DNA of 64,000 bases from Planctomycetota bacterium (GTDB lineage Bacteria > Planctomycetota > UBA11346). The DNA lies in NCBI GenBank assembly GCA_038213805.1, contig JBBQSO010000009.1:1-64000 (forward strand). Reading direction: 5' to 3'. Under the pieces are notes generated by a model. The model was not told where the DNA came from. It searched no databases and was given only the letters and a program-made list of their open reading frames with translations. How positions within the stretch are numbered: the first letter of the stretch is position 1; every line of letters starts with the position of its first letter. This document shows, piece by piece, positions 11,840 to 56,558 of this stretch. The translations under genes and the position numbers were made by a program.

Positions 11840-11883
11840 GCGCGACCCGGCCCGCGCCGCCCCCGCCGCCCACCAGGTAGACC

Positions 11884-14405: not shown

Positions 14406-14410
14406 CCGAC

Positions 14411-14538
14411 GTGCGGTGCGGGGTGCGGGGTACGGAGTGCGGAGCGCGACAGCAGACCGCTTTCGACGCGACTCCTTTTCCTGAGCCCGATCTCTGCACC
14501 ACGGTCGCTCCGCACTCCGCACTCCGCACTCCGCACCC
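14411..14538. repeat. Inverted heptamer arrays (GTGCGGR)n ... (CTCCGCA)4 inside the cytochrome operon
   Basis: gtgcggtgcggggtgcggggtacggagtgcggagcg ... cgctccgcactccgcactccgcactccgcaccc. Confidence 0.85.
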
Positions 14539-14568
14539 TGCGGCCGCGATTCCGATGGCGGACACCTG

Positions 14569-16191: not shown

Positions 16192-16300
16192 CCGCCCGGC
16201 GGGATTGCTGCCCAGCGCGCCTTCAGCAGGCGCCGGCCGACGCTTGCACTCGGCCCGATCCCACGCATCACATGAGCTCGCACCTGCCCAGGAGAACGCG

Positions 16301-22485: not shown

Positions 22486-22581
22486 GACGGACGGGGTCTC
22501 CTGATGCGGGCGGCCACGCCCGGTAGGTCGGCATCCTCCACGGGTTTCGCGCCCGCCAAGGTGCAAACGGCATGCGGTTGC

Positions 22582-22815
22582 GGGAGACACGAGCTGCGAG
22601 AAGCGCGACCCCGAGGTGTGTTTTTACTACCTAAAATCAGTGGTAACAATTATTTGGGGCGCGAACTGGGAGGCATTCACAGCTCGCTCCCGCGCCCTGA
22701 GGACGGCGCTGTTGCCGTAGCGCTTACACGATGGAGTGGCGAATCGCGCGTGTGCTGGCACGCGCGTCTCACGTCTCGCCGCTCGCATTCTTCCCGCGTC
22801 TCGCGTGTCGACGTC
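22582..22815. repeat. Degenerate inverted heptamer arms (gagacacgagctgcgag / cgtctcacgtctcgc) around an AT-rich spacer
   Basis: Same unit class as 21427 and 44756 but decayed. The spacer at 22621-22656 is AT-rich and may hold the rio promoter on the minus strand (TTGTTA-N17-TAAAAA). Confidence 0.45.
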
Positions 22816-29781: not shown

Positions 29782-31833
<2,052 letters not shown>

Positions 31834-38774: not shown

Positions 38775-40124
38775 TTATCGCCCGCTCAGCGTCTCCGCCC
38801 ACGCCAGGATCTCCAGCGCGTGGCGATCGCCGGGTGCCTGATCCAGCACCGCATGCACCTGCGCGAGTGCCTCGTCGCGGCGCTGCTGACTGCCCAGGAT
38901 GAGGGCCATGGCGAGGCGCGCATCGCGTACGCAGGCCGGGTCACCCAGCGTGCGCGCATAGAGGTCAAGCGCCGCCTGGAGATCGCCGGAGTCCGCGGCC
39001 AAGCGCGCCGCCCACAACAGGGTGGCGCTGTCGGTCTGGCCGCTGGCGAGCAGCGCGGCGAGTGCGGCGCGCGCCGCAGGCCGGTCTCCGGCCGACCAGG
39101 CGAGCCAGGCGGCGAGGCGCTGCGTACGCGGCGCCGACGCTTCGGTGGGGGCGAGGCGCGCGAGCAGGGCGCGGCCCTCGCCGGGCGCACCGGCATCCCC
39201 CGCAACCGCCGCCGCCGCGAGCAGCAGCGCGGGCGTGGCCAGCTCGCTGGCGAGCGCTGCGCGGTAGGCGGCCAGGGCCGGCTGGAAGAGCCCGGCACGG
39301 CGCAGGTCGTCGGCGAGGCGGCTGCTCGGTACCGCGCCGGCGCGGTGCGCGGCAAGCGCGGTCGCCGCCGTCTCGTCCGGATCCCCACCGTGCTCGCGCG
39401 CCGCGAGCAGCGCCTGCCAGGCGAGCTGCCGATCCGCCTCAAGCGGCGGCGGGGTACGCACGAGCAGCTCGTGCGCGGCCGCGGCGAGATCGTCCCACTG
39501 CGCGCCGGCCTGCAGCGCGGCGAGTTCGATGCGCATGAGGTTGGCGTCGGCGGGGAAGCGCATGCGACCAAGGCCGGCGGTGGCCAGTGCACGCCGCGGT
39601 GCTCCGGCCTCCAGCTGGCAGCCGGCGAGGATGGCGAGGTCGTTGGCGGTGGCCACGGGCGCGGTGCCGCCGGCCAACGCGTCGGCGAGTTCGAGCGCGG
39701 CCCCCGCGCGGTCGCCGGCGGCGGCCAGGGCGCGGCCAAGATTGGCGCGCGTGCCGGGGGGCACCTGGGCGGTGGGAGCGACCAGGGCCGCGCGGTAGGC
39801 GGCGATGGCGGCCGGGAAATCGCCGGCGACGAAAGCCGCGTCGCCGCGCACGCGCTGCAGCCAGGGATGGTCGGGACCCCGGTAGGCGGCGAGGCGGGCC
39901 TGCGCGTCCTTGATCTGGTCCGCGTTCAGCAGCGGATGCACCGCGTTGATCAGCTCGACCAGCGCCGGTGGCAGGGGTGCCGCGGGCGCGGGTGCGGCCT
40001 CGGCGGGGGCGGCGATGATCGCGACTTCGGCGGCGCCGGCCGGGAATGCCAGCCACGCGCAGATCAGCAGCGCGGCGACGCTGCCGACGAGCCGCCGGTG
40101 GATGCGCAGGTCAGGGCAGGACAT
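38775..40124 (-). CDS. Secreted TPR protein (TtpD-like position in TonB cluster)
   Basis: Signal-like N-terminus, Ala-rich TPR repeats (GDFPAAIAAYRAAL); last gene of the tonB operon. Start uncertain. Confidence 0.75.
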   Translation of the reverse strand: MSCPDLRIHRRLVGSVAALLICAWLAFPAGAAEVAIIAAPAEAAPAPAAPLPPALVELINAVHPLLNADQIKDAQARLAAYRGPDHPWLQRVRGDAAFVAGDFPAAIAAYRAALVAPTAQVPPGTRANLGRALAAAGDRAGAALELADALAGGTAPVATANDLAILAGCQLEAGAPRRALATAGLGRMRFPADANLMRIELAALQAGAQWDDLAAAAHELLVRTPPPLEADRQLAWQALLAAREHGGDPDETAATALAAHRAGAVPSSRLADDLRRAGLFQPALAAYRAALASELATPALLLAAAAVAGDAGAPGEGRALLARLAPTEASAPRTQRLAAWLAWSAGDRPAARAALAALLASGQTDSATLLWAARLAADSGDLQAALDLYARTLGDPACVRDARLAMALILGSQQRRDEALAQVHAVLDQAPGDRHALEILAWAETLSGR

Positions 40125-40794
40125 ACTGGAAGGTCCAGGTGCAGCGTGTGCTCACCGCGACGCCGCCCTTGCGGCCGGCAACGAAGTGCGAGCGCAGGAC
40201 GCCGTTGAAGCTCGGTTCGCGGAAATGCTCGGGATGGCGTGCCGCGACCAGTTCCAGATCGCTGACCCGGCCATCCTCGTGGACGATGAAGCTCACCACC
40301 ACGGTGTCGGTAAGTCCGAGGCGCTGGGCACGTGGCGGATACGCGGGGAAGTGCCGGTCGCTGGCGCGCACGCCCTCGTCAAGGTCGTGCTCGTCGAGCG
40401 GCGCCAGGGTCGGCGCAAGCACGCCCGGTGCGCCGGCCTGGACCTCACCAAGCTGCTGCGGCACGAGGTCCGGCAACGGCACGACCACCGGCGCCAGCGG
40501 CTGGGCGAGGGCGTCGAGAGTCGGGCGCACGCCGAGATCGAGGGTCGGCATGGCCGGCGGCGTGGGCGCGCGCGCCGGGCGCGGCGTGACTGGCGGTGCG
40601 GACGGCGGTACCACCGGCGGCTGCTCGCGATGCAGCTCGACCAGCGGCGGCAATACCACCGCCGGGGAGACCGCGAGCATCCGCGCCAGGGCGCTGAACA
40701 GCACCAGGTTGACCACCACCGCGGCGAGCAGCGCCACCGCCAGCAGCGGCGTGCGCCGCCGGCGCGCGGGGCGCAAGGCCAGCGCGGCGCTCAT
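40111..40794 (-). CDS. tonB: Energy transducer TonB
   Basis: N-terminal TM, Pro-rich linker, PAYPPRAQRLG..VVVSFIVHEDGRV (TonB_C). Confidence 0.88.
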   Translation of the reverse strand: MSAALALRPARRRRTPLLAVALLAAVVVNLVLFSALARMLAVSPAVVLPPLVELHREQPPVVPPSAPPVTPRPARAPTPPAMPTLDLGVRPTLDALAQPLAPVVVPLPDLVPQQLGEVQAGAPGVLAPTLAPLDEHDLDEGVRASDRHFPAYPPRAQRLGLTDTVVVSFIVHEDGRVSDLELVAARHPEHFREPSFNGVLRSHFVAGRKGGVAVSTRCTWTFQYVLP

Positions 40795-41213
40795 GGCGCC
40801 TCCCTGGCCTGGGCGGCGAGATCGACGCGCTGCGCGCCGGCGGCGGTGCAGGCGTCCATGACCTCGAGCATGCGTCCGGTGCTCACCTGGCGGTCAGCCA
40901 CCAGCAAGACGCGCACGGCGCCACTGCGCTGGAGGGCTGCGGCGAGCGCGCCGAGTCCATCGCCGTGCGCGCCACCCGGCAGCAGCACCGCGCCGCTCGC
41001 GGTCAGCGCCACCAGCAGCACGTCGTTGGCCTCAGTGGGCCGCGCCTGCGCGCTGCCCGGACGCTCGATGTCGACGGTGCTGTCGGCGGTGAAGCTGGTG
41101 GTGACCATGAAGAACACCAGCAGTACGAAGAGGATGTCGATCAGGCTGATGACGTTGATCTCGACGCCACCGGCGGGCCGGCGGCGCTGGCGCAAGAACA
41201 GCAGCGGGTTCAT
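40791..41213 (-). CDS. exbD: Biopolymer transport protein ExbD
   Basis: EINVISLIDILFVLLVFFMVTTSF with the conserved TM Asp; LVADRQV. Confidence 0.92.
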   Translation of the reverse strand: MNPLLFLRQRRRPAGGVEINVISLIDILFVLLVFFMVTTSFTADSTVDIERPGSAQARPTEANDVLLVALTASGAVLLPGGAHGDGLGALAAALQRSGAVRVLLVADRQVSTGRMLEVMDACTAAGAQRVDLAAQAREAP

Positions 41214-41632
41214 GAGCGCGCTCCGGCACGCGTGCCGGCTGCGGTAAGCATGGCGACCCGGCGCGCGAACAGCGCGTGGGCGAGCGCCGCCGGGATCGCC
41301 ACGACCAGGCCGGCAGCGGTGCAGATCAAGGCCTCGGAGATCCCAGCGGCGAGCTGCCGCCCGCCGGCGCCGCCGAGCGCGGCGAAGCAGGTGATGATGC
41401 CGCTGACCGTGCCGAGCAGGCCGAGCAGCGGCGCGACCGCGGCGAGGATGCGCAGCAGCCATAGGCGCGCGCGCAGGCGTTGCGCGCCGTCCGCCGCGGA
41501 GAGCCAGCCCAGCGCCACGCCCTCAAGGATCAGCGCCCACGCGACCACCCCGCACAGCGCGGTCGCCCACAGCGGCGCGCCGCCGATGGCGGCCAGGCGT
41601 TCCAGCGCGGTGAGCAGGCCGTCAGCGGGCAT
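41210..41632 (-). CDS. exbB: MotA/TolQ/ExbB proton channel (short)
   Basis: APLLGLLGTVSGII..F, GISEALICTAAGL. Confidence 0.9.
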   Translation of the reverse strand: MPADGLLTALERLAAIGGAPLWATALCGVVAWALILEGVALGWLSAADGAQRLRARLWLLRILAAVAPLLGLLGTVSGIITCFAALGGAGGRQLAAGISEALICTAAGLVVAIPAALAHALFARRVAMLTAAGTRAGARS

Positions 41633-42890
41633 GGGCCGACTCCCCCGCCACCGCCGCGACGCGCCCGGACGCGGAGGCAGGCGCGGCGTGCGAGCTGGCC
41701 AGGGCGGTGGCCTGCTCCTCGATGCGCGTCAGTGCGCGTTCGGCGCGGCGGGCGAGCAGGGCGTGCGCGAACAGCACCGGCACCGCCACCAGCAGCCCGA
41801 GCTGAGTGGTGATGAGCGCCTCGGAGATGCCGCCGGAAAGCAGCTTGGGGTTGCCGGTGCCGTGCGCGGAGAGCACCTGGAACATGCGGATCATGCCGCT
41901 GACCGTGCCGAGCAGGCCGAGCAACGGTGCGATGGCAGCGAGCATGCCGAGCACGGTCAGGCTGCGTTCGATGCGCGGGGTCTGCGCGAGGATGGCCTCG
42001 CCAAGCGCGGCGGCGCGCGCCTCGAAACCGCGCGCGAACACCGCCAGGCCGGCGCCGAGCACGCAGGCCACGGGCGTGCCGTGCCCGACCAGCAGGCGCT
42101 GCGCGGCGGCGAGGTCGCCGGCGGCGACGCTCGCAACCACCGCGCGGCCGAGCCCGTCGTCGCCGCGCTCGCGGTGGAAGCTGAGCAAGCGTTCAAGCAC
42201 CAGCAGCAGCGCGATCAGGCCGGTGGCGAGGATCGGAATGACGAACCAGCCGCCGTCGGCGAGCTTGCGCCAGAGCGTGCGCGGCGCCGCGGCAGTCTGC
42301 GCGGCGAGCTTGCCGGTGACGTCGACCGCGATCCAGCCAGCGCGCGTCGGGCCAGGTATCGTCGGACCAACCTGCCGCCAGCCGTCGCCAAAGGGTGCCA
42401 CCAGTGCGGCCGATTCGGCCACGGCAGCACCGGCCGCACCCAGGCGGATGACGGTCGCGGTCGCCTGGTGGCCGTCCCACCACGTCACCGGCGCCTGCTG
42501 CGCCATCAGGGTGGTGGCAGCGGCAAGCTGGGCCGCGGCGGACTCCTGCCAGCGGCGCAGGCTGGCGGCGAGCGGCGTCGTGGCCGGCACACCGGCGATG
42601 CTGGCGGCTTGGCGCGCCAGCTCGAGACGCAGAGGCCGGGGATCGGTGGGCAGCGGTGCGGCGAGTTGCGCGTCCAGCGCGCGCAGCTCGCTCGCGCGCG
42701 ACGCGGCGGCCTGCGCCAGCTTGGTCAAGCGCTCACCGAGCGCGCGGCGCTCGACCCCGACCTGATCCTGGGCCGCGGCGAGCGCCGTACGCGCGCCCGC
42801 AGGGTCATAACCGGCAGTGTCCGCGGCGGTGCCGACGGGGGTCGTGAACGCGAGGATCACGACCGCGGCGAAGACCCAGGGCAGGCGCAT
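41622..42890 (-). CDS. Long MotA/TolQ/ExbB protein with N-terminal periplasmic domain (TtpC-like)
   Basis: Start MRLPWVFAAVV at 42890; signal peptide, coiled coil, then APLLGLLGTVSGMI and GGISEALITTQLGL. Confidence 0.88.
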   Translation of the reverse strand: MRLPWVFAAVVILAFTTPVGTAADTAGYDPAGARTALAAAQDQVGVERRALGERLTKLAQAAASRASELRALDAQLAAPLPTDPRPLRLELARQAASIAGVPATTPLAASLRRWQESAAAQLAAATTLMAQQAPVTWWDGHQATATVIRLGAAGAAVAESAALVAPFGDGWRQVGPTIPGPTRAGWIAVDVTGKLAAQTAAAPRTLWRKLADGGWFVIPILATGLIALLLVLERLLSFHRERGDDGLGRAVVASVAAGDLAAAQRLLVGHGTPVACVLGAGLAVFARGFEARAAALGEAILAQTPRIERSLTVLGMLAAIAPLLGLLGTVSGMIRMFQVLSAHGTGNPKLLSGGISEALITTQLGLLVAVPVLFAHALLARRAERALTRIEEQATALASSHAAPASASGRVAAVAGESAHAR

Positions 42891-43660
42891 CAGGGCACAC
42901 CTTGCGTGCTTGGCGGCGCGGGCGCGGGCGCGGGCGGCGCCGGCAGCAGCAGCGCCTCGGGGACGGTGTTGCCGCGCAGTTGCGCGATCGCTGCGCTGAT
43001 CGCCGCGGCGACAGCGGGATCCCCGTCGGGATGCAGCGTCCAGCGCACGCCGGCGCGCTGCGCAGTGCCGGCCTGGGCACCGTCGAGGCTGACGTACCAG
43101 GCTGCGGCATAGCCGGCCTTCACCACCTGCACCGCTACGGTACCGCCGCCCGGGGCGACGCCCTCGGCGATCTCGATCTCCCAGCGGCCGGCGCTGACGC
43201 GCACCGCCTCGAACGCGGCGGCACCGGCACGCAGCTGCGCGGGCAACGAAGCCTCTGCGTCGGCCTTCGCGCCAGGCACGGAAGCAGACGGATAGGGCGC
43301 GAGCATGGCCGTCAACGCAGCCAGGGTGGCGAGCGCCGCCTGGTCGTCGGCGGCCAGCGCGGCTGCCTCTTCGGCCAGGTGGGCGCCCTCGGCCTGGCGC
43401 GTCGCGAGCCGAGCACGCAGTTCGGCGAGCTGCGCGTCCGCGGCCTCCAGCGCGATGGTGCGGGCGGTAGCCAGGCGTTCGAGGTCGGCGCGCTCCTTTT
43501 CCCAAGCGGCAAGCAGGGTGGCGCGCTGGTGCTCGAGCGCGAGCGCGGCGCGCGCCTCGGCCAGCGCCGCTTCGGGCTCGGCCGCGGCCACCACCCCTGC
43601 CAGGAAGGCGAGCAGGGGCGCGAGGGCCTTCAGCAGCAGGGAGGAACGGGCGTGGCGCAT
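42890..43660 (-). CDS. Periplasmic coiled-coil protein (DUF3450/TtpB-like)
   Basis: Signal peptide and long coiled coil; first gene of the TtpC-type operon. Family call rests on position and shape. Confidence 0.7.
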   Translation of the reverse strand: MRHARSSLLLKALAPLLAFLAGVVAAAEPEAALAEARAALALEHQRATLLAAWEKERADLERLATARTIALEAADAQLAELRARLATRQAEGAHLAEEAAALAADDQAALATLAALTAMLAPYPSASVPGAKADAEASLPAQLRAGAAAFEAVRVSAGRWEIEIAEGVAPGGGTVAVQVVKAGYAAAWYVSLDGAQAGTAQRAGVRWTLHPDGDPAVAAAISAAIAQLRGNTVPEALLLPAPPAPAPAPPSTQGVP

Positions 43661-43881
43661 CGGGGTCCGGGAAGGAGGCATCAGCGGAAAGGATGCCGGC
43701 GCGGATGGTGGGGCAACGGGGGGATACGTCCAGATCGTGAACAGCGGCAAGACCCCCTGTCGAGGAGCTGCGCAAGCCCCCGGTCGGCCGGCCACCACCT
43801 GCCGGACGTGATCGTGCCTGCCATTGCCTGGGCGCGCGGGCCGCGAGCATCACCCCGGCCGCGCCTTTCCGGAGCTCACGC

Positions 43882-44757
43882 ATGTCCGACCTCCGCCAGC
43901 ACTTCCTTCTGACGCTCCTCCTCGGCATGGTATCCGTTTCCGCCACCGTCGAGGCCGCCGAGCCATCCCCCCTGCGCGTGGTCGCTTCCACCACCATGCT
44001 CGCCGACATCGTGCGCCAGGTTGGCGGCGCGCGGGTGGCGGTTACCAGCCTGCTCGCCCCTGGCGTCGACGGCCACACCTGGCAGCCGGCGCCCGCCGAC
44101 ATTCAGCGCATCGCCACAGCGCGCCTGGTGGTGGTCAATGGCCTGGGCTTCGAGGGCTGGCTCGACCAGGTCATCGCGAACGCCGGGGCGCGGCCGACCG
44201 TGGTCGTGGCCAGCACCGGCGTCACCCCGCGCGGCGGCGATCCGCACGCCTGGCAGGACGCGCGCAACGGCATGCGCTATGCGCAGGCGATCGGCGCGGC
44301 GCTGGCCGCCGCCGATCCCGCCGGCGCGGACGACTACGCCGCCTGGACCGAGGCCTACGTCGCCCAGTTGCGCGTGGTTGACGCCTGGGTGCGCAAGCAG
44401 ATCGCCAGCCTGCCGCCGACGGCGCGCGTGCTGGTCACCAGCCACGACGCGCTCGGCTACTACGGCCTGGCCTACGGGCTGGAGGTCATCGCCGTCGAGG
44501 GCATCGCCACCGGCCAGGAGCCCGACCCCCAACACATCGCCGGCCTCATCACGCTGCTGCGTGCACGCCACGTGAAGGCGGTGTTTATCGAATCCGTCGC
44601 CAGCCCCAAGGTGGTGGAGCAGATCGGCGCGGAAGGTGGCGCCGCGCTCGGCGGCAGCCTGTTCAGCGACAGCCTCGATGTCCCGGGGGCGCCGGCCGGC
44701 ACGTACATCGGCATGTTCCTGACGAATACGCGCGCGATCGTGGATGGGCTGCGCTGA
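43882..44757 (+). CDS. Zn/Mn ABC transporter substrate-binding protein (ZnuA/TroA family)
   Basis: DGHTW, NGLGFEGW, DPHAW, TSHDALGYY, LFSDSL. Confidence 0.93.
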   Translation: MSDLRQHFLLTLLLGMVSVSATVEAAEPSPLRVVASTTMLADIVRQVGGARVAVTSLLAPGVDGHTWQPAPADIQRIATARLVVVNGLGFEGWLDQVIANAGARPTVVVASTGVTPRGGDPHAWQDARNGMRYAQAIGAALAAADPAGADDYAAWTEAYVAQLRVVDAWVRKQIASLPPTARVLVTSHDALGYYGLAYGLEVIAVEGIATGQEPDPQHIAGLITLLRARHVKAVFIESVASPKVVEQIGAEGGAALGGSLFSDSLDVPGAPAGTYIGMFLTNTRAIVDGLR

Positions 44758-47287: not shown

Positions 47288-48610
47288 TTACAGGATGTTC
47301 GCCGCGATCCCCGACAGCTCGCTGCGCTCCGACTTGGTCAGCGTCATGTGTCCCGCCAGCTCCTGGCCGCGCATGCGCTCGACCACGTAGGTCAGGCCGT
47401 TCGAACTCGCATCCAGGTAGGGGTTGTCGATCTGGTGCGGGTCGCCGGTGAGCACGATCTTGGTGTCGTGGCCAGCGCGGCTGATGATGGTCTTGATCTC
47501 GTGCGGGGTCAGGTTCTGGGCCTCGTCGACGATCACGTACTGCTTGCTGATCGAACGGCCGCGGATGTAGGTCAGGGCCTCGAGCGTGATCGACTCCTCC
47601 TCGATGAGGCGCTTGATGACCTCGTCGGGATCGCGCTCCTCGCTGGCGAGCAGGAAGTGCAGGTTGTCGAAGATCGGGCCCATCCAGTGCGAGAGCTTGT
47701 CGTCCTTCGAGCCGGGCAGGTAACCGATGTCCTGGCCGAGCGGCATGATCGGGCGGCTGACCAGCAGCTTCTTGAAACGTTCGTCGTGAATGACCTTGGC
47801 CAGGCCGCAGGCCAGGGCGAGCAGGGTTTTGCCCGTGCCGGCCTGTCCAACCAGGGTGACCAGCTTGATGCGGTCGTCGAGCAGCAGCTCGAACGCCATG
47901 CGCTGCTCGTGGCTGCGCGGCGCGACGCCGAAGAGCATGGGCGGATCATCGTCGATGCGCCGCAACAGGCCCTTGGCATCGCAGGCGAAGAGCAGGTGCT
48001 GCTCCTCGTCCTGGTCGTCGACGGCGACCACGAACTGGTTGGTGACCAGCTCACCGACCAGCTCGACGGCGATCTCCTCGGGCTTGGCCACGTCGCGGTC
48101 GGAGAGCTCGCGCAGGCGCGAGCTCGGCACGGTGATCTGGCGCCAGCCGGTGTAGAGCTCGTCGACGTTGACCTTCTGATTCTCGAAGTCCTCGCTGGGA
48201 ATGCCGAGGGCGTCGGCCTTGACGCGCGCGTTGATGTCCTTCGAGATGAAGTAGACGTTGCGGCCTTCGCGCTTGAAGCGCTGCGCACAGCCCAGGATGC
48301 GGTTGTCGTTGACGCCGGGCAGCATGCCCGCGATCTCATCGTAGCCCAGCGCGACCTGCACCGATCCGCCCTGCGGCGTCGGCACCCCGTCGCGCAGCGA
48401 GCCCTTGCTGCGCAGGCGGTCGAGGGCGCGCGCGACCTCGCGGGAGTTCTGCCCGAGCTCGTTGTTGGCGGTCTTGAACTTATCAAGCTCTTCGAGCACC
48501 ATCATGGGGATGACCACGTGGTTGTCGGCGAACGCGAAGAGCGACTGCGGGTTGTGCAGCAGGACGTTGGTGTCGATGATGAAGGTCTTGGCAGTCGCGG
48601 GATCGATCAT
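47288..48610 (-). CDS. PIN-PhoH (PhoH2) family protein
   Basis: IIDTNVLL, DNRIL, SKDINARVKA (PIN); GQAGTGKT, IRGRS, DEAQN, GDPHQID (PhoH ATPase). Confidence 0.95.
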   Translation of the reverse strand: MIDPATAKTFIIDTNVLLHNPQSLFAFADNHVVIPMMVLEELDKFKTANNELGQNSREVARALDRLRSKGSLRDGVPTPQGGSVQVALGYDEIAGMLPGVNDNRILGCAQRFKREGRNVYFISKDINARVKADALGIPSEDFENQKVNVDELYTGWRQITVPSSRLRELSDRDVAKPEEIAVELVGELVTNQFVVAVDDQDEEQHLLFACDAKGLLRRIDDDPPMLFGVAPRSHEQRMAFELLLDDRIKLVTLVGQAGTGKTLLALACGLAKVIHDERFKKLLVSRPIMPLGQDIGYLPGSKDDKLSHWMGPIFDNLHFLLASEERDPDEVIKRLIEEESITLEALTYIRGRSISKQYVIVDEAQNLTPHEIKTIISRAGHDTKIVLTGDPHQIDNPYLDASSNGLTYVVERMRGQELAGHMTLTKSERSELSGIAANIL

Positions 48611-48621
48611 TGTTCCGGGGT

Positions 48622-51600
48622 TCAGGGGTAGGTGGGTTTGGGCGGGGATTTGAGCTTCGCGTCGGCGAGCGCGGTGATCAGCAAGTGGGTGCGCGGGCCG
48701 AGTTCGATCTTCTGCGTGACGATGGCGTTGCCGGTGCGGTCGGTGACGGTCAGCGCCGTGTCCTTCCACACCACGCGGTACTCGGTGTAGGCGCTCACCA
48801 GGTCAAGATCGATCCAGGTGCCGCTGGTGCGGTCGCTGGCCTGGCCGAGCTGGATGCGCAGTTTGCCGCTGCCCTTGGCCTCGAAGTTGGCACCGATCAT
48901 GCCTTCGCGGATCGGCATGCCGATGCCGCTCAGGCTGTCCGGCGCGCCGCTGGGCAGCACCACGGTGTTCTCCTCAAGGGTGGCCTTGCCGAACGGCACC
49001 AGGTTGAGCGCGGCGAAGGCATCCGCCTTGCCCGCGCTGGCGCCGGCGGGGGCGACGCTGCCGGCGACCGCCACATAGCCGCGGCTGATGGCGATCTCGT
49101 CGAACTGCACCATGGCCCCGGCATTGGTGCCGAAGTGCAGCACCGGCAGCAGGTCGGTGGCGCGCACCTCGGCGGTCTCGCGACCGTTGTTGAGGTCGAC
49201 GCCGATGGTGCCGTTGTCGCGCGCGTCGATGCGCAGGAAATTCGAGATCTTGGGCGTGAAGGGGAAGGGCTTGGCCTTGCGGCTCTCGGTCTTGGTCTTG
49301 ACCTCGTAGGTGTTGGCCGAGAAGTCGAGGATGACCTGCACGCTGCGGAAGTTCACCACCATCCCGCCGCGGTTGGCGGCGATCTGGTAGACGATCGATA
49401 CCGCCTTGGCCGAGGCCATGTCGCGGCGCTCCAGCCAGGCGTTGTCGCCGAGGTTGCCGAGCAGACCCTTGGAGACCTGCCAGTTGCTGGAGCGTTCGGG
49501 GAAGCCCTTGGCAAGGTCGTCGGGCATGTCGAAGGTGACGTTGTCCTTGCTGCTCGCCACCGCGGGCTCGCCCGCGCGGGCGGGGGCGAGGTTCTTGAGC
49601 GCGGTCTCGAAGCGCGCCATGGGCTCGACCGCCTGCGGGAACTGGACCTTGTCGACCTTGCGCAGCGCCTCGAACGCGTCCTGCATGCCCTTGGCGTTGC
49701 CGAGCCTCAGCGCCTCGTTGCCCTTGGCGACGCTGTCGTTCACGTCGCGCTGGCGCTCGAGCGAGATCAGGATCTCGAGTTCGCTGCCGACTTCCGGCGC
49801 GAGCACGCCCTTGGCCTTGCGCAGCTGCACGCCCGCCAAATCGGGATCGCCGGCGGCGAGCAGCATGATGGTGGCGAGCGCGTGGTCGTCGCCCTTGGCG
49901 GCCGGCACCGCCGCGGCGGCGCGGAAGAGCTCAGCGACATCCTTGATCGCGACCTGCGGCCACGTGAGTTCCGTGCGGCTGTCGTTGGGCGAGGTGATGG
50001 TCACGCCCGCCGCGGTCGCCCCGGTCACGTCCCAGAGCTCGGCCGTGGTGGGGTGGCGGACGCGCAGCTTGGCCGGCGGGTGCTCGCTGATGATGCGCGC
50101 GAGCACGTCGCCGCGGTTGTTCCACAGCACCACCTTGTGCTTGATCGCGGCACTCTCGGGCGCGCCATCGGGCAGGGTGGTGAGCTGCTGCTGGACGAGG
50201 TTCTGGTTGTTGACCAGCAGCGCTGCGGTGACCTGGCTGTCGATCTGCACGATGCGCTGGAGGTCGGGCTTGGCGGGCTCGGGCAGCGCCGCCGGGACGG
50301 ACGGTACCGCGGCGGGCGACGGGACGGCGGCGACGGCCGGATCCTTGGTCGCCTCGCCGCCGCCGGCGGGGGCGAGTGTCACCGGCCGGCCGAGGCGCTT
50401 CTCTGCCTCGGTGGCCAGGCCCTTGGCCCAGGCGGCGTCGCCCGGGAAGCCCCAATACGTCTGGGGCGGGGTCAGCAGGGCGCCGATCAGCACCGGGTCG
50501 GTACCAGCCGCGGCCTCTTTCTCGACCGCCTGACGGCGCAAGTCGTGATTCGCGCGCACGCGCTCAGCGACGTTCTTCGAGTCCTCCTCGGTGGGCAGGG
50601 TGTCGCACTTGGCGAGCGCCTCGGCGAAATGCTCGCTGCGCTCGAGGCTGCCGATCTCGAGGATCACCTGGACGCGCTCTTCGGAGGTGACGCGCTTGAC
50701 CGCGACCGGCTCCGGCGCCGTGGTGCCGCCGATCGAGCCGTCGACCCCGGCTGGAACGGTCGCGGTGGGCACGGCGGCGACCGCCGGAGCGGCGGGCTTG
50801 TCAGGGCCGGCCGCGGCGCCCGGCGCGAGCGCGGAGAAGGCGCCCTTGCCTGGCGGCTTGGGCTTGTCGACGGTCGGCGCCGCAACTGGCGCCGGGGCCA
50901 GTTGCGGCGACTTCGCCTTCTCCGGCATCGGCTCGAGCGGCGCCAGGGTCGGGCGCGTCGCCACCTTCACCGGATTGAGTACGTAGAAGCCGACCGCGCC
51001 GCCGATCAGCAGCACCGCGACCACCACCAGGACGATGATGCCGGTCGAGCTCTCGGGCTCTTTGCGCCGCGAAGTGGTTACCTCGCCGCTGGCGGTACGC
51101 GAACCGCGCCGCGCGGTGCCCGTGCCGGTGCCGGTGCGGTTCATGCTCGAGGTGCCGATGCGCGGGATCGGACCGGTCGCGGTACCACCCATGCGCGGGA
51201 TCGGACCGGTGACGGTGCCGCTGCGCCGGATGCTGGCGCTGCCGGGCGCAGGATTGGAGATGTTCGAGGTGAGGCGCAGGGTCTGCCGCTTGGCGCCGCC
51301 GCCGAAACGGTCGAGGGTGTCGATGACCTCGCGGTAGCCCTGGAAGCGGTCCTTACGCTCGGCCGCCACCAGCTTCTGGAAGAACAGGTCGAGGTCGCGG
51401 CTGACGCCACCCTGCACGCTGCGCAGGGAGCGCGCGCCGTTGGCCACCACCTTGTGCAGCGCCTCGTGGGCGTTGTAGCCGGTGACCAGGCCCTCGCCGG
51501 TCATCATGCGGAAAAGCAGCGCGCCGAGCATGAAGATATCGGCGCGCACGTCGCTGCGGATCTCATCGCTGAGATGCTCGGGGGCGAGGTAGTACTCGGT

Positions 51601-53055
51601 CGCGGCGCTCGCGCCGGAAAGTTCACGCACCAGGTAGCGGTGGTTCTTGGGCACCGCCAACTCGTCGAGCAGGACGTTGCCCTCAGGGCTGACCAGCACC
51701 ACCTCGGGACGCAGCCAGCCGTGCACCACGCCGTGGCGCGCGGCCTCCTCCAGGGCGAGGGCGAGCTGGCGGATGATGCCCATGGCGTGCGGCGGGGCGA
51801 GCGCGCGGCGGCGAGCGAGGATGTGCCCGAGCGGCTCGTAGTCGGCGGGATCGGTGCTGAACAACGCCGCGGCGTCGCGCGTCGGCTGGAGCGCGGCGAG
51901 GGGCAGGATGTAGGGATGCTTGACCTGGCTGGCGAGGCGCACGTGCGGCTCGAGCGCCTGCTGATAGCCGGGTTGGCGCATCAGCGCGGTGTTGAGGGTC
52001 AGGGCGCGCAGATTGCGGCCGGTGGCGCGCTCGCGCACGCGCGCGCGGCGGCCCTGCACGCTCTCGTCGAGGGGCGCGATCAGGTCGAAGCCGGGCACCT
52101 CGAAGGGCACCACGCTGCTGACTTGCGGCGGCAGCTGCGCCTGCGCGCCGCGAGCGGCACCGAGCGCCCCCGTGCCGCCGGCCGGGTCGGGGATCGCCTG
52201 CATGCCGTAGGCGCTTTCGTCGCGCAACTTCTCGCCGATGGTCGCGCGCGGGCCCGAGCCGCCGCCGACGGCGGCGGGCGCCGGAGCGCGCGTCAGACCG
52301 CGCTCGGTGTCGAGGACCTCGAGCGCCGAGCCGCACACACCACAGGCGTAGACCATGCCGACCGCGGCGTTGCCGATCTCGAGCATGGCCTGGCAGCGGT
52401 AGCACGAGATCAGCCAGCTGCCGGAGCGTGCCGCCACCGGCTCCTGGTCGGGGATCGCCGCCTGCGGCACGCCGGAATCGCTGCGCCGCGCGCGCTCGAG
52501 CGCGAGATCGGAGACCACGCGCATGGTCTCCATCACGCCCTGGCCGTCGATCGCCACCGCCGCCACGCTCGGCCAGCCGCGCACGTTCATCAGCGGCTCG
52601 AGCTGCTCGGGCCTGAGCGCGGTCGGCAGGTCCTGCTTGTTGTACTGCATCACCACCGGGATGTCGTCGGCCAGCGCATGATGGCGCAGGTTGCCGAGCA
52701 TCTCGTTCATCGCTTCGATGTTCTCGTCGAGCGCCTCGCGGCGGCTGTCGGCGACAAACACCACGGCGTCGGCGCCGGCCCGCACCGCGCGGCGCGTGGC
52801 GGCGTAGTAGCTCTGCCCGGGCACGGTGTAGAAGTCGAAGCGCACCTGGTGGCCGCGCACCTCGCCCATCTCGACGGCGAGTAGGTCGAAGCGCAGGGTG
52901 CGCTCGGAATGGGTGTCGACCATCACCAGATCGCCCGCGGCCTGGCTCGGCACGCGATCGTGGATCACCGTCAGGTTGGTGGTCTTGCCCGCCATGCCGG
53001 GGCCGTAATAGACCACCTTGAGCACGACTTCACAGGCGGGACCATCGATGCGCAT
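48622..53055 (-). CDS. MglA-family GTPase / Zn-ribbon / Hanks-type pseudokinase / TM / periplasmic domain fusion (1477 aa)
   Basis: KVVYYGPGMAGKTTNL, ERTLRFD, YTVPGQ, QYNKQD; CYRC...CGVC; kinase fold with HPYI, HGWLRPE, YLAPE, DVRADIFMLG; TM GIIVLVVVAVLLIGGAVGFYVL. Confidence 0.9.
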   Translation of the reverse strand: MRIDGPACEVVLKVVYYGPGMAGKTTNLTVIHDRVPSQAAGDLVMVDTHSERTLRFDLLAVEMGEVRGHQVRFDFYTVPGQSYYAATRRAVRAGADAVVFVADSRREALDENIEAMNEMLGNLRHHALADDIPVVMQYNKQDLPTALRPEQLEPLMNVRGWPSVAAVAIDGQGVMETMRVVSDLALERARRSDSGVPQAAIPDQEPVAARSGSWLISCYRCQAMLEIGNAAVGMVYACGVCGSALEVLDTERGLTRAPAPAAVGGGSGPRATIGEKLRDESAYGMQAIPDPAGGTGALGAARGAQAQLPPQVSSVVPFEVPGFDLIAPLDESVQGRRARVRERATGRNLRALTLNTALMRQPGYQQALEPHVRLASQVKHPYILPLAALQPTRDAAALFSTDPADYEPLGHILARRRALAPPHAMGIIRQLALALEEAARHGVVHGWLRPEVVLVSPEGNVLLDELAVPKNHRYLVRELSGASAATEYYLAPEHLSDEIRSDVRADIFMLGALLFRMMTGEGLVTGYNAHEALHKVVANGARSLRSVQGGVSRDLDLFFQKLVAAERKDRFQGYREVIDTLDRFGGGAKRQTLRLTSNISNPAPGSASIRRSGTVTGPIPRMGGTATGPIPRIGTSSMNRTGTGTGTARRGSRTASGEVTTSRRKEPESSTGIIVLVVVAVLLIGGAVGFYVLNPVKVATRPTLAPLEPMPEKAKSPQLAPAPVAAPTVDKPKPPGKGAFSALAPGAAAGPDKPAAPAVAAVPTATVPAGVDGSIGGTTAPEPVAVKRVTSEERVQVILEIGSLERSEHFAEALAKCDTLPTEEDSKNVAERVRANHDLRRQAVEKEAAAGTDPVLIGALLTPPQTYWGFPGDAAWAKGLATEAEKRLGRPVTLAPAGGGEATKDPAVAAVPSPAAVPSVPAALPEPAKPDLQRIVQIDSQVTAALLVNNQNLVQQQLTTLPDGAPESAAIKHKVVLWNNRGDVLARIISEHPPAKLRVRHPTTAELWDVTGATAAGVTITSPNDSRTELTWPQVAIKDVAELFRAAAAVPAAKGDDHALATIMLLAAGDPDLAGVQLRKAKGVLAPEVGSELEILISLERQRDVNDSVAKGNEALRLGNAKGMQDAFEALRKVDKVQFPQAVEPMARFETALKNLAPARAGEPAVASSKDNVTFDMPDDLAKGFPERSSNWQVSKGLLGNLGDNAWLERRDMASAKAVSIVYQIAANRGGMVVNFRSVQVILDFSANTYEVKTKTESRKAKPFPFTPKISNFLRIDARDNGTIGVDLNNGRETAEVRATDLLPVLHFGTNAGAMVQFDEIAISRGYVAVAGSVAPAGASAGKADAFAALNLVPFGKATLEENTVVLPSGAPDSLSGIGMPIREGMIGANFEAKGSGKLRIQLGQASDRTSGTWIDLDLVSAYTEYRVVWKDTALTVTDRTGNAIVTQKIELGPRTHLLITALADAKLKSPPKPTYP

Positions 53056-53082
53056 TGCGACCTCCGGACGGGACGGCTGAAA

Positions 53083-53706
53083 TCACACCACCGCCCGCGC
53101 ACGATCGGCGGCGGGGGATGGCTTGGGTTTCACGAAAGAACGCAGGGCGAGCACGGCGAAGCCGCTGCAGATGCCGGCATCGGCGATGTTGAAGGTCGGC
53201 CAGACGTAATCGATGCCGACACCCTGAAGGTCGACACGGATGAAGTCGCGCACCCCGCCGAGGGCGTGCAGGCGGGCCAGGGCGCGATCGATGCCGTTGC
53301 CGAGCGCGCCACCGAGGATCGCGCCGAAGGCGAGGTTCTCCCACCGCCCCACCAGGCGGAAGTAGCGCCACCAGATCCAGCCGAGCAGCGGGATGAGCAG
53401 CGCGGTGACCACCGCGACCAGGCCGGGGAAGCTGCCGGCCATGCCCCAGGCCACGCCCGGGTTGTAGGAGCGGTCGATCCAGCCCGGCATGCCGCTGACC
53501 GGCCCGGGGATGGCGGCGTTGAAGCGCGGCGTCTGCACCGGCAGCGCGAACAGCCACAGCTTGGTGAGCTGGTCGAGGAGCAACACCAGCGCCAGCGCCG
53601 GCACGAACCAGCGGCGCCAGGCCAGGAAGACGCTGATGGTCGAAGTCCCCCGCCGCGGTGGAGCGGGGGGGTCGGCGGCCAGGGTAGAGGAGCGGGATGA
53701 GGGCAT
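53083..53706 (-). CDS. lspA: Lipoprotein signal peptidase II
   Basis: LLDQLTK, NPGVAWG, GGALGNGIDR, GVRDFI, WPTFNIAD; start approximate. Confidence 0.95.
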   Translation of the reverse strand: MPSSRSSTLAADPPAPPRRGTSTISVFLAWRRWFVPALALVLLLDQLTKLWLFALPVQTPRFNAAIPGPVSGMPGWIDRSYNPGVAWGMAGSFPGLVAVVTALLIPLLGWIWWRYFRLVGRWENLAFGAILGGALGNGIDRALARLHALGGVRDFIRVDLQGVGIDYVWPTFNIADAGICSGFAVLALRSFVKPKPSPAADRARAVV

Positions 53707-53899
53707 GGCGACCTGGAACGGATGCAGCAGACCAGAAGCGGGGCGCGGGCGCAGGCGGGAAATGGCGCTGGGCAGAGCGCGCCCCACGCTCCATCACACT
53801 ACCTTCCTCAGCAGACGGCCGCAAGCAACAGAGATGGTCGATGGCCGTCTTGCATCCCCTGGCACACGGCGAGGATACGCTACCCGCCAAGGATTCCGC

Positions 53900-55081: not shown

Positions 55082-55280
55082 AGGCGCCCGGAACGGCGAG
55101 CCCCAGCTCGCCTCCGCGGTCATCGTCACCGTGCCGGTTGTTCGGCGCCGGTAGGGCAGATGTCGCCAGACGCGCTGGGGTGCGCCGCTCCCGGCGCCTG
55201 GTGCCGAGTCCGTAGCGCCTCCCCTGGTTGACCCCCGATCCCGGACGGCTACGGTCTTGGCCCATTTTCAAGGACTGCCC

Positions 55281-56558
55281 ATGCCCACCGCCACTCTTCC
55301 CCGCTCCGCCCAGGCCCTGGTCGGCACCCAGCGCCCGACCCTGGCGCAGGTCCGCCTGCTGCGGCGCGTCGCCATCCAGGATGTCGAAGAGACGAAGAAG
55401 CTGAGCGCCGCCCTCCAGGACGGCCTGGGTGCGCTCAAGGACGATGCCAAGGTGCGCAAGGGCATCCTCAGCCTCGCCCTGGGCCACTTCAGCGATGCGG
55501 AAGAGGCCTTCTCCGGCACTGACGCCTACAGCCAGGCGCTGCTCGGGCTGGTCTACCACGAGCTCGGCGAGCACGCCGACGCCAAGGTCCACCTCGCCGC
55601 CGCCGCCAAGGGCCTGCCCGAGGCCAAGGCCGAACTGGTCCGCACCCTGCTCGACGGCGGCCAGATCGAGGACGCCGAGAAGGCCCTCGCCAACGTCACC
55701 GATGGCGCCGACCGCGAATTCCTCGCCGGCCGCCTGCAGGACGCCAAGGGCAACGTCGAGGCCGCCATCAACGCCTACGAGGCCGCCCTCGAGAAGGACC
55801 CGGAGCACGTCGAAGCGGCGTTCAAGCTCGGCGTCCTGCTCGACCGCATCGGCGATGACGACATGGCCGTCGAGTACTACCTGGTGTGCGCCGACGTCGC
55901 GCCCCACTACCTCGCGGGCGTGACCAACCTGGGCATCTTGTATGAGGAGCGCGGCGAGTCGAACGCCGCCATCGACTGCTTCCGCCAGGTGCTGGCCTAC
56001 AACCCGCGCGACCGCCGCGCGCTGATGCTGCTGCGCGATGCCAAGTCGAGCCGCACCATGTACTACGACGAGCGCGAAGAGCGCGAGCGCGAGCGCATGG
56101 AGAAGATCATGCGCACGCCGGTCAACGATTTCGAGTTGTCGGTGCGCAGCCGCAACTGCCTGGCCAAGATGAACATCTTCACCCTCGGCGACCTGCTCAA
56201 GATCACCGAGCAGGAGATGCTGTCGTACAAGAACTTCGGCGAGACCTCGCTGAAGGAAGTGAAGGAGATGCTCGCAGCGCGCAATCTGCGCCTGGGCATG
56301 TTCCGCGACGGCGACGAGCGCTCGATCTCGAAGGCCGACCAGAAGATCCTCGGCGAGAGCGTCGAGAAGCTCGAGCTGTCGACGCGCACGCAGCAGGTGC
56401 TCGAGAACCTCGGCGTCTCGCGCATCGGCGACCTCGCCCAGTACACCGACCTCGACCTCTATAAGGCCGCCGGTTCGGGCCAGAGCGTGGTCCAGGAGCT
56501 GTCGACCGCGCTCGGCGCCTTCGGCGTCAGCCTGCCGCGTCCCGAGATCAAGCTCTAG
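55281..56558 (+). CDS. TPR protein with two C-terminal RNA polymerase alpha-CTD-like domains
   Basis: TPR repeats, then PVNDFELSVRSRNCLAKMNIFTLGDL...KNFGETSLKEVKEML and a second degenerate copy SVEKLELSTRTQQVLENLGVSRIGDL. No alpha N-terminal domain. Confidence 0.92.
   Translation: MPTATLPRSAQALVGTQRPTLAQVRLLRRVAIQDVEETKKLSAALQDGLGALKDDAKVRKGILSLALGHFSDAEEAFSGTDAYSQALLGLVYHELGEHADAKVHLAAAAKGLPEAKAELVRTLLDGGQIEDAEKALANVTDGADREFLAGRLQDAKGNVEAAINAYEAALEKDPEHVEAAFKLGVLLDRIGDDDMAVEYYLVCADVAPHYLAGVTNLGILYEERGESNAAIDCFRQVLAYNPRDRRALMLLRDAKSSRTMYYDEREERERERMEKIMRTPVNDFELSVRSRNCLAKMNIFTLGDLLKITEQEMLSYKNFGETSLKEVKEMLAARNLRLGMFRDGDERSISKADQKILGESVEKLELSTRTQQVLENLGVSRIGDLAQYTDLDLYKAAGSGQSVVQELSTALGAFGVSLPRPEIKL

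Follow-up and report, generated by a model that had tools for sequence, protein, structure and literature searches.

A stretch of 64,000 nucleotides from contig JBBQSO010000009.1 of the Planctomycetota assembly GCA_038213805.1 (the window, in what follows) carries on its minus strand a single gene encoding a protein of 1477 amino acids (aa), in which a GTPase domain of the MglA family is joined to a zinc ribbon, a degenerate protein kinase domain, one predicted transmembrane helix and a large extracytoplasmic module. It is a new domain architecture made from known parts, conserved and under constraint, and we found no published description of an MglA-kinase or MglA-pseudokinase fusion in the literature searched, which agrees with the remark of an earlier note on this DNA that the architecture was not one recognised as described. 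The anatomy alone can be regarded as practically certain. The best explanation as a whole, a membrane-tethered MglA switch scaffolded by a pseudokinase, has in our view somewhat less than an even chance of being right, and the mechanism that we propose for it is tentative.

Architecture and authenticity of the gene

The features of the gene and of its product are listed below, with structural models from AlphaFold 2 (AF2) and their predicted local distance difference test scores (pLDDT).

48622..53055 (-), whole open reading frame (P0001), 1477 aa plus stop, with an architecture common to 99 homologues
53061..53065 (-), GGAGG, a Shine-Dalgarno-like site read from the sequence, 5 nt before the ATG
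52471..53055 (-), MglA-type G domain, aa 1-195, with P-loop G18-T25, Arg52, Thr53, T77-Q81 and N139-D142
52285..52419 (-), zinc ribbon, aa 213-257 (C218, C221, C238, C241), pLDDT 85-91, followed by a conserved RGLTRAP stretch
52117..52284 (-), disordered linker, aa 258-313, pLDDT <50 for 262-313, poorly conserved (mean top-residue frequency 0.32)
51307..52116 (-), predicted pseudokinase of PknB-like Hanks fold, aa 314-583, with R350, L352, H445-G446-W447, D464-E465-L466 and A491-P492-E493
51268..51306 (-), motif FGGGAKRQTLRLT behind the kinase domain, aa 584-596, nearly invariant (mean top-residue frequency 0.85)
51043..51267 (-), juxtamembrane stretch, aa 597-671, disordered, enriched in T, G, R and P, with RxGTG-like repeats
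50977..51042 (-), single predicted transmembrane helix, about aa 672-693 (Kyte-Doolittle, 19-residue window), with basic RRK on its N-terminal side
50686..50976 (-), extracytoplasmic linker rich in Pro and Ala, aa 694-790
50392..50685 (-), extracytoplasmic helical domain 1, aa 791-888 (AF2 model m8b0696bf4ea2, pLDDT ~89-97)
49591..50268 (-), extracytoplasmic helical domain 2, aa 930-1155, containing a small beta insert (AF2 model)
49081..49482 (-), beta-sandwich domain 1, a jelly roll of apparently lectin-like fold, aa 1192-1325 (AF2 model, Foldseek)
48625..49035 (-), beta-sandwich domain 2, a jelly roll of apparently lectin-like fold, aa 1341-1477 (AF2 model, Foldseek)

The fusion is a real single gene, one minus-strand open reading frame (ORF) as the earlier note had it. 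Its GC contents at the three codon positions are 0.70/0.50/0.93 over the full length, in a window of 70% GC, which is the pattern of typical real genes, and no competing long frame of the region betters the third-position value (GC3). The start Met1 does not vary in an alignment of 50 sequences, and the GC of the region (0.66-0.74) bears no island signature in base composition. An assembly chimera is largely refuted because the same architecture recurs in 99 homologues from independent assemblies and in eight genome loci. The earlier note had allowed that the fusion might be such a chimera, or that its orthologues might prove to be split or to carry intact kinase motifs, and the latter two are not borne out: the orthologues keep the degenerate kinase motifs (HGW in 97/100), and split forms are not the rule, the short matches lying mostly on short contigs. 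The only likely split is a pair, P0141 (354 aa) and P0097 (1207 aa), both listing a longest contig of 7099 bp, which are probably one gene broken by a frameshift.

That pair, apparently one gene split on a single contig, is one of two observations that could speak for a chimera or a decaying pseudogene. The other comes from the closest relative, a syntenic copy at L001:4158-8600 (~88% aa identity), which can be read throughout only with two compensating frameshifts, from about aa 924 to 1342. The frame of the gene is open there only to codon 1005, continues in another frame and is regained near codon 1315, and these breaks are either two real frameshifts or indel errors of that assembly. Against decay or artefact stand the common architecture of the 99 homologues, drawn from ENA, JGI, NCBI and Logan assemblies, the GC3 of 0.93 across the entire ORF, the invariant start and a ratio of nonsynonymous to synonymous substitution rates (dN/dS) of ~0.09-0.15 in the three cytoplasmic domains, and we give this explanation virtually no weight.

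The MglA-type G domain

Residues 9-189 match the MglA proteins of Thermus thermophilus (3t12, E 5.7e-49) and Myxococcus xanthus (5ymx, 6.2e-47), while Arf and Ras proteins are found only at 1e-5 to 1e-3, and the domain is 46-52% identical to MglA in BLAST and HMMER alignment. An AlphaFold model of aa 1-640 (mean pLDDT 81.7), compared with MglA structures in Foldseek, gave target-normalised template modelling (TM) scores of 0.86-0.91. The G-domain motifs are present as GPGMAGKT, SERTL (Arg52), TVPGQ (Gln81) and NKQD. In the G3 motif Thr replaces Asp (TxxGQ) and the catalytic Gln is kept, which makes it an MglA-type G3, and R52 aligns with Arg53 of T. thermophilus MglA, the intrinsic arginine finger of switch I. 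The close resemblance to MglA that the earlier note had seen, with the Arg of ERT and the Gln of TVPGQ included, is borne out by these comparisons.

We counted residues over the 92 family members with an N-terminus and over 58 standalone MglAs (190-215 aa), a sample biased towards the relatives of the query. GPGxAGKT and NKQD are conserved across the fused family, with G23 and K24 of the P-loop invariant in 92/92 proteins, and the catalytic set is kept in nearly all of them (R52 91/92, T53 85/92, T77 90/92, Q81 87/92); the R, T and Q residues form the catalytic machinery of MglA (Miertzschke, 2011, PMC3199381). The G domain is thus of the MglA family (group 1-type), and with all the residues known to be required for binding and hydrolysing GTP it looks competent.

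MglB, the partner of MglA, binds in T. thermophilus to a hydrophobic beta2 patch made of L55, F56, F57 and F59 (PMC3199381). At the equivalent of F56, 86/92 fused proteins have H, R or Q and 56/58 standalone MglAs have F, and the other three positions stay hydrophobic in the fused family (L54 in 82/92, F56 in fusion numbering in 86/92, and L, F or W at the F59 equivalent in 79/92). Because this contact is changed across the family, the fit to a canonical MglB would seem to be altered, not necessarily lost.

The kinase-like domain

The region after the linker is recognisably a protein kinase fold. It matches Pfam Pkinase with E 1.3e-10 and 41.6 bits (cutoff 31.7), its best PDB sequence match is PknE (6.5e-15), and its model, with pLDDT of 92-98, reaches a target-normalised TM score of ~0.8 against PknB in Foldseek, as expected of a bilobal kinase fold. 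We set the catalytic positions by HMMER alignment to PknB and counted the columns over the window protein and its 99 best homologues. The beta3 Lys (VAIK) position is L352, with K in 0/100; the alphaC Glu position is H371 (H or Y in the family), with E in 0/100; and where the catalytic loop should have Asn, 100/100 have V, A, C, I, S or T and 0/100 have N. HRD is replaced by HGW in 97/100, the rest being HAW, HGY and HAL, so that the position of the catalytic base is Trp in 98/100. At the DFG position the hundred sequences have DEL (44), DEF (34), DEI (9), DDL (5), DEM (3), DDF (3), DEV (1) and FGF (1), and a literal DFG occurs only in three DDFG members. The Gly loop GxGxxG has given way to LDESVQGRR and variants of it. 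These column counts agree with what the earlier note had read from one sequence, namely that the Gly loop, the VAIK Lys, HRD and DFG were lost and APE was kept.

Other parts of the domain are held very tightly. APE is retained in 98/100, the Asp of DFG (D464) in 99/100 and an acidic residue at 465 (E or D) in 99/100, and R350, two residues before the beta3-Lys position, occurs in 99/100. The activation-loop segment SGASAATEYYLAPE is nearly invariant. Mean column conservation is as high in the pseudokinase (0.71) as in the G domain (0.71) and the zinc ribbon (0.72), and dN/dS is 0.089 for the G domain, 0.15 for the zinc ribbon, 0.098 for the pseudokinase (aa 314-596) and 0.40 for the outside part; these ratios come from one pair, the window and the 90% identical syntenic L001, in a nucleotide alignment with linker indels. 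The kinase-like domain is therefore predicted to be catalytically dead, the dead state itself being conserved, and it is a domain under constraint rather than one in decay. It seems to be confined to the fusion, as no free-standing HGW pseudokinase turned up in a search with the pseudokinase region, where the 127 bits of fragments are followed directly by the 69 bits of ordinary kinases.

Zinc ribbon, membrane helix and extracytoplasmic module

The CxxC...CxxC that the earlier note had seen behind the GTPase is the four-Cys ribbon of C218, C221, C238 and C241. All four Cys are kept in 96/100 aligned family members, and the remaining four sequences are without that region. Its match to Pfam Zn_ribbon_LysW is weak (E 0.0015, under the cutoff), as is that to LysW in the PDB (5k2m, E 0.0015). 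A search of PDB sequences at E <= 10 returned LysW, thioredoxin-2 and others and neither GltJ nor ZitP, the presence of the GltJ zinc-ribbon entry in the searched copy being unchecked.

The juxtamembrane stretch is enriched in Thr (0.11 vs 0.06 in the whole protein) and also in Gly, Arg and Pro. Over 84 family members it has a median length of 64 aa and a median of 2 GTG-like motifs, with recurring R-x-G-T-G/A units; phospho-acceptor sites, or repeats that bind something, are both possibilities. With one transmembrane segment, basic residues before it and domains of cytoplasmic type on its N-terminal side, the N-terminus should be cytoplasmic, and the protein is predicted to be a single-pass inner-membrane protein with its C-terminal part outside. 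The earlier note's single transmembrane helix with ~780 aa beyond it corresponds closely to what we found, one segment with 784 residues C-terminal to it.

An AF2 model of the outside module (aa 780-1477) has a mean pLDDT of 89, and its two beta-sandwiches look like lectin-like jelly rolls. Foldseek matched the module to a putative Bacteroides glycosyl hydrolase (4jqt), tandem galectins and the helical-plus-lectin-like region of clostridial neurotoxins, with E of ~1e-8 to 1e-6 and TM scores of only 0.14-0.19 (query-normalised) and 0.25-0.38 (normalised to the smaller targets). A toxin reading of the neurotoxin matches was discarded, the query-normalised TM score being 0.14-0.18 and the root-mean-square deviation >20 A; what is common to both is long helices followed by a lectin-like jelly roll. 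The ESM Atlas was of little help, returning only generic kinase clusters for aa 1-600 and, for aa 780-1477, unnamed planctomycete clusters together with DUF1581, DUF1583 and 3keto-disac_hyd leads, all below 0.9.

Outside the membrane the protein is less conserved (0.37-0.46, vs 0.71 for the cytoplasmic part). The outside module gave 58 matches among 1.84 billion representatives, all of them its own family or fragments of it except P0263, an unrelated 1975-aa Ig-repeat/FecR protein matched in the low-complexity linker. Apart from P0263, the matches of at least 1000 aa have the module in the same position as the fusion family, and the shorter ones are fragment-like, three sequences beginning inside the transmembrane helix or without a start Met.

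Distribution and phylogeny

A word-index protein search gave 199 proteins among the 8000 candidates scored. The 99 homologues (P0002-P0100) have E <= 1.2e-103, lengths of 814-1565 aa and kinase and mostly Arf-type Pfam labels, and every organism name given by the sources is Planctomycetes or Planctomycetota. Where the sources name the protein at all, they call it 'protein kinase', 'hypothetical protein', 'mutual gliding-motility protein MglA' or 'SRP receptor subunit beta/serine-threonine kinase'. A search among short proteins turned up, for the most part, partial copies from short contigs, followed by standalone MglAs at ~50% identity. In a search of GTDB with one genome per species, the best 80 of 592 confirmed relative stretches made up 75 loci, and the fusion is present in eight of them (L001-L008), all labelled Planctomycetota, the other 67 matching in the G domain only, most of them as standalone mglA.

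A quick maximum-likelihood tree of 70 G domains, from which two loci with internal stops were left out, placed all 28 fused domains in one clade (Shimodaira-Hasegawa-like approximate likelihood ratio test, SH-aLRT, 100; stem 0.75). This clade does not adjoin the planctomycete standalone MglAs, and its sister group was not resolved by the tree. The fusion is a conserved membrane protein of one narrow lineage of uncultured Planctomycetota. Two of the NCBI labels are doubtful, 'candidatus Brocadiaceae' (L005) and 'Candidatus Kuenenia stuttgartiensis' (L006), which stand on contigs of 64% and 71% GC, respectively. Kuenenia is AT-rich, and the labels or the binning may be wrong.

Genomic context

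The fusion gene is tightly packed, in an operon-like way, between two genes of the same strand:

53083..53787 (-), lspA (signal peptidase II), conserved upstream neighbour, stop 27 nt before the fusion ATG
47288..48610 (-), PIN-PhoH ATPase gene, conserved downstream neighbour, ATG 11 nt after the fusion stop

Neither gap contains a terminator-like site, the sole minus-strand site in the scan lying inside the fusion ORF. The order lspA, fusion, PIN-PhoH is also found in L002, L003, L006 and L008, whose proteins are 32-63% identical to that of the window; in L004 and L005, PIN-PhoH is downstream of the fusion, and the window, L002, L005, L007 and L008 have a divergent class-III aminotransferase gene upstream. 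The close and conserved position of the fusion behind lspA suggests a housekeeping role linked to the envelope, not a mobile or defence function. The window is otherwise ordinary chromosome, with genes for flagellin, multihaem cytochromes, uvrB, RNase II, queC and others.

The earlier note's statement that the window holds no MglB/roadblock gene was confirmed by both a Pfam scan of 38 of its ORFs and a search of its six-frame translation with a roadblock hidden Markov model (HMM) built from 19 locus proteins, neither of which found any. There was likewise no roadblock among the 23 scanned neighbour ORFs of L002-L008, and the same 19 roadblock proteins searched against L001-L008 with tblastn gave only matches of E >= 0.14. 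A weak tblastn match in the window (31513-31686, E ~7e-4) was rejected, being antisense to uvrB and without HMM support.

Standalone mglA genes in the phylum look quite different. In 12 of the 19 planctomycete-labelled standalone mglA loci the neighbour ORFs were scanned (L026, L035, L041, L050, L051, L052, L056, L060, L063, L064, L071, L075), and a roadblock gene lies just upstream of mglA in 11/12, with a second one downstream in four of them. A TPR protein is encoded further upstream in L035, L056 and L060, that of L060 also having a roadblock domain, and the MglA of these loci carries a long C-terminal extension (308-514 aa in total in the four MglA ORFs scanned). Since L060 (TPR-roadblock, roadblock, mglA) comes from the same metagenome-assembled genome (MAG) as the fusion locus L005, a roadblock GTPase-activating protein (GAP) would be available in trans to at least one carrier. 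Carriers of the fusion need not lack MglB.

Some other genes of the window deserve mention. Two adjacent genes of the MotA/TolQ/ExbB family (41210-44102, minus strand) encode proteins of 140 aa and 826 aa, the latter with a long N-terminal region without any family match. They are adjoined by a TPR ORF and unassigned ORFs (38775-41247), in a region with 83% nucleotide identity to L001, and no genes of this family were seen among the scanned neighbour ORFs of L002-L008. A cluster of multihaem c-type cytochromes with a cNMP-binding 4Fe-4S protein occupies 10868-19608 (plus strand) and 22817-25312 (minus strand), with a cytochrome c assembly protein nearby, and a RIO-type atypical kinase gene (Pfam RIO1, E 3e-37) lies at 21601-22590 (minus strand). 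A conserved protein with TPR and two RNA polymerase alpha C-terminal domains (55257-56558, plus strand; L002:6471-7796; L005:2663-3934) is syntenic with the aminotransferase and the lspA-fusion block.

Relation to known systems

With the MglA of M. xanthus and T. thermophilus (group 1) the fusion shares TxxGQ in place of DxxGQ, the intrinsic Arg finger, the catalytic Gln, NKxD and the fold. MglA itself is soluble, ~195 aa long and usually encoded beside mglB, whereas here it is the N-terminal domain of a membrane protein of 1477 aa, no roadblock gene was found in the window or in the eight fusion loci, the equivalent of F56 is changed and the fused domains form their own clade. The survey of prokaryotic small GTPases by Wuichet and Sogaard-Andersen (2014, PMC4316618) uses a single domain of ~150-240 aa as its size criterion, and the fusion, with five further regions, lies well outside it; nor does it have a roadblock gene within four genes, the measure of coupling to mglB.

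In joining a Ras-superfamily GTPase and a domain of protein-kinase fold on one polypeptide the fusion resembles the Roco proteins (LRRK2, bacterial Roco), and by analogy this suggests intramolecular control between the two. It differs from them in that its GTPase is MglA (Pfam Roc is matched only at E 0.0089 and 16.7 bits, cutoff 27), its kinase appears dead and the protein spans the membrane. We found no COR or LRR match in it with Pfam at E <= 1.

Among bacterial pseudokinases, a 2025 review (PMC12599244) describes seven families, none with a GTPase, the nearest in motif and transmembrane placement being the GLW family. GLW pseudokinases (O'Boyle et al., 2025, PMC12599244) share with the fusion, as they are described, a Trp for the catalytic Asp, a hydrophobic residue for the beta3 Lys and a transmembrane segment after the kinase. 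By the same description they are set apart by GLW where the fusion has HGW and by a poly-Leu beta3 where it has xRALxL, they are mainly proteobacterial, and none of the four occurrences of the word GTPase in the review concerns them. The C-terminal module of mycobacterial MviN (MurJ; ActPs3 pseudokinases) is similar in architecture, with a fully degraded cytoplasmic pseudokinase, a transmembrane segment and an extracellular domain of carbohydrate-binding type (PMC12599244). Unlike MviN, the fusion has no MurJ flippase domain, has an N-terminal GTPase and zinc ribbon and belongs to another phylum.

The MglA of M. xanthus works with a membrane Hanks-type kinase, MasK, and with a single-pass zinc-finger membrane protein, GltJ, and the fusion could, by analogy, be a covalent version of these pairs. 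They differ from it in being separate proteins, and MasK is reported as active (PMC3546991). In the Myxococcales locus L065 no masK or kinase gene lies beside mglBA.

Another fusion of an MglA-like domain with kinases is P0106, a metagenomic protein of 1028 aa whose G domain is 40% identical over 206 residues to that of the window protein. The MglA-like domain is followed there by an active-looking kinase, a second pseudokinase (HGR) and a C-terminal transmembrane segment. In contrast to the window protein, its G domain is degenerate, without the Arg finger or the Gln at the aligned positions, its first kinase has HRD, DFG and the Gly loop (Pkinase E 1.4e-60), and it has no zinc ribbon or large outside module. 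It is a single match on a long tree branch, a mirror image of the active/dead pattern of the window protein. A further kind of MglA fusion is seen in P0101-P0104 (~863-902 aa), with an MglA-like G domain, GYF, a response-regulator receiver and DUF4388 (domains checked on P0101, matching the precomputed Pfam labels of all four). A separate receiver-DUF4388 protein is encoded directly upstream of mglB-mglA in one Myxococcales locus (L065:8543-9490), so that the fused and the neighbouring forms indicate the same MglA partnership.

A possible mechanism and its alternatives

In the mechanism that we tentatively favour, the fusion would be a tethered GTP/GDP switch that, when loaded with GTP, brings cytoplasmic effectors to a fixed site of the envelope. 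Like other receptor pseudokinases, the kinase-like domain would act without catalysis, as a scaffold or a relay of conformation, holding the GTPase at the membrane and coupling it to the state of the extracytoplasmic module. There are partial precedents, as M. xanthus MglA interacts with the membrane-associated kinase MasK (PMC3546991) and the pseudokinase of MviN is a scaffold (PMC12599244). GTP hydrolysis would probably need help from beyond the neighbouring genes, either from a roadblock-type GAP encoded elsewhere in the genome or from conserved elements of the protein itself (the zinc ribbon, the pseudokinase or the FGGGAKRQTLRLT motif). The orphan MglA-family GTPases SofG and Bdellovibrio MglA are reported to work without a neighbouring mglB (PMC4316618). 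The receptor-like switch with the GTPase state as its output, proposed in the earlier note, is partly supported, in that it fits the intact G motifs and the dead catalytic loop; its direction of signalling and its sensing remain conjectural.

Several observations weigh against the tethered and scaffolded switch. R350 and D464 are each kept in 99/100, so that the pseudokinase might still bind nucleotide or have some atypical activity. With a predicted TM score (pTM) of only 0.51 for aa 1-640, and disordered linkers at 203-211 and 262-313, the packing of the G domain on the pseudokinase is not confidently predicted; a complex prediction of aa 1-260 with aa 314-600 (50-row alignment) scored 0.00 in two runs without controls, which is evidence in neither direction. 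In a few divergent proteins of the family (P0093, P0096, P0098) the G motifs are degenerate. That the beta-sandwiches bind a ligand is a conjecture from their fold, matched at a target-normalised TM score of only 0.25-0.38, and two proteins, P0126 and P0280, end just after the transmembrane helix on contigs of 43.6 and 13.9 kb; if these short forms are real, the extracytoplasmic module would be dispensable for the core function. The conserved synteny may partly reflect shared ancestry rather than function, and the copy in the nearest relative, L001, needs two frameshifts to be read through.

A more ambitious version, which we consider improbable, would make the protein a receptor and its G protein on one polypeptide, the outside module sensing an envelope or external ligand and the pseudokinase, zinc ribbon and FGGGAKRQTLRLT acting as a built-in exchange factor or GAP without MglB. 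The signal could also run from the inside out, as in GltJ: polarity regulators in the cytoplasm would set the nucleotide state of the tethered MglA, this state would control how the lectin-like module engages the cell wall or outer membrane, and the protein would be an anchor for adhesion, motility or polarity, not a sensor. We hold this to be unlikely, although it has some attraction. In M. xanthus, MglA-GTP binds the cytoplasmic linker of GltJ and the zinc finger of GltJ recruits MglB (PMC11135422), and the fusion likewise sets a zinc ribbon beside an MglA domain on a single-pass membrane protein whose cytoplasmic part is far better conserved than its outside part (0.71 vs 0.37-0.46). The two MotA/ExbB-family genes are ~4.5 kb away, but they lie outside the conserved synteny of L002-L008. 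A weak match to the NCBIfam GltJ model (aa 659-792, E 0.0022, far under the cutoff) spans the transmembrane helix and the Pro-rich linker and is for that reason probably compositional; the zinc ribbon has no PDB sequence match to GltJ or ZitP (E <= 10), and Pfam finds no GYF domain in the fusion.

The remaining explanations concern the kinase fold. By analogy with MviN, an active Ser/Thr kinase might phosphorylate the Thr-rich juxtamembrane stretch, or the conserved Ser/Thr of the activation loop, in trans, and FHA or other phospho-reader proteins would be recruited, with MglA mainly setting the location or timing. MviN has the same order of pseudokinase, transmembrane segment and carbohydrate-binding (in the fusion, lectin-like) domain, and its phosphorylation by PknB recruits FhaA (PMC12599244); the Thr enrichment, the GTG-like motifs and the nearly invariant SGASAATEYYLAPE would suit such a role. 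Yet no partner kinase or FHA gene is conserved beside the fusion in the scanned loci, the sole FHA-domain ORF seen in the window is ~20 kb away, and the retention of a catalytically complete MglA (dN/dS 0.089) would go unexplained, all of which makes this a fairly poor candidate. An atypical active enzyme, in which relocated residues (R350, D464, E465) bind nucleotide for phosphotransfer or another reaction under GTPase control as in Roco, seems very unlikely to us. In its favour are the near-invariance of these residues, the position of R350 two residues before that of the beta3 Lys and hence on the same strand face, the strong constraint on the domain and the existence of pseudokinases, WNK and SidJ among them, in which residues have moved or taken on new uses (PMC12599244). 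Set against it are the Trp at the catalytic base (98/100), the absence of the catalytic-loop Asn and alphaC Glu in 100/100, the LDESVQGRR in place of the Gly loop and the report that families degraded in all three motifs are nearly always without ATP binding (PMC12599244). Finally, a kinase- or GTPase-based abortive-infection sensor in anti-phage defence is scarcely credible. Of the PADLOC kinase models, PD-T4-6 (E 3.2e-27), mad6, PglW and MkoA match aa 345-592, and the NCBIfam MADS6 and PglW models match under the cutoff, but these matches are limited to the generic kinase fold and the required catalytic residues are missing. The neighbours are housekeeping genes (lspA, aminotransferase, PIN-PhoH) in an order conserved across orthologues of only 40-63% identity, and with its GC of 0.66-0.74 the region is no island; an identity as PD-T4-6, MADS6 or PglW was accordingly rejected.

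Significance

No Ras-like polarity switch of bacteria has been studied more closely than MglA, and it is known in a small, soluble form that GAP and guanine nucleotide exchange factor proteins, separate from it, cycle between its states. Planctomycetes, which are not named among the MglA-bearing phyla in the available text of the 2014 survey (PMC4316618), hold canonical roadblock-MglA clusters as well as the fused form. The fused lineage is a natural experiment in how the switch is regulated without a neighbouring MglB, in what bacterial pseudokinases do and in whether GTPase-kinase coupling arose independently of the Roco proteins or not. Were the protein indeed both receptor and G protein, bacteria would have arrived by convergence at a counterpart of Roco proteins and receptor-coupled G-alpha signalling, and the protein might mark or organise the polar or division site in planctomycetes. 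The architecture is thus a possible way for a bacterium to wire an MglA-type switch directly to a surface receptor.

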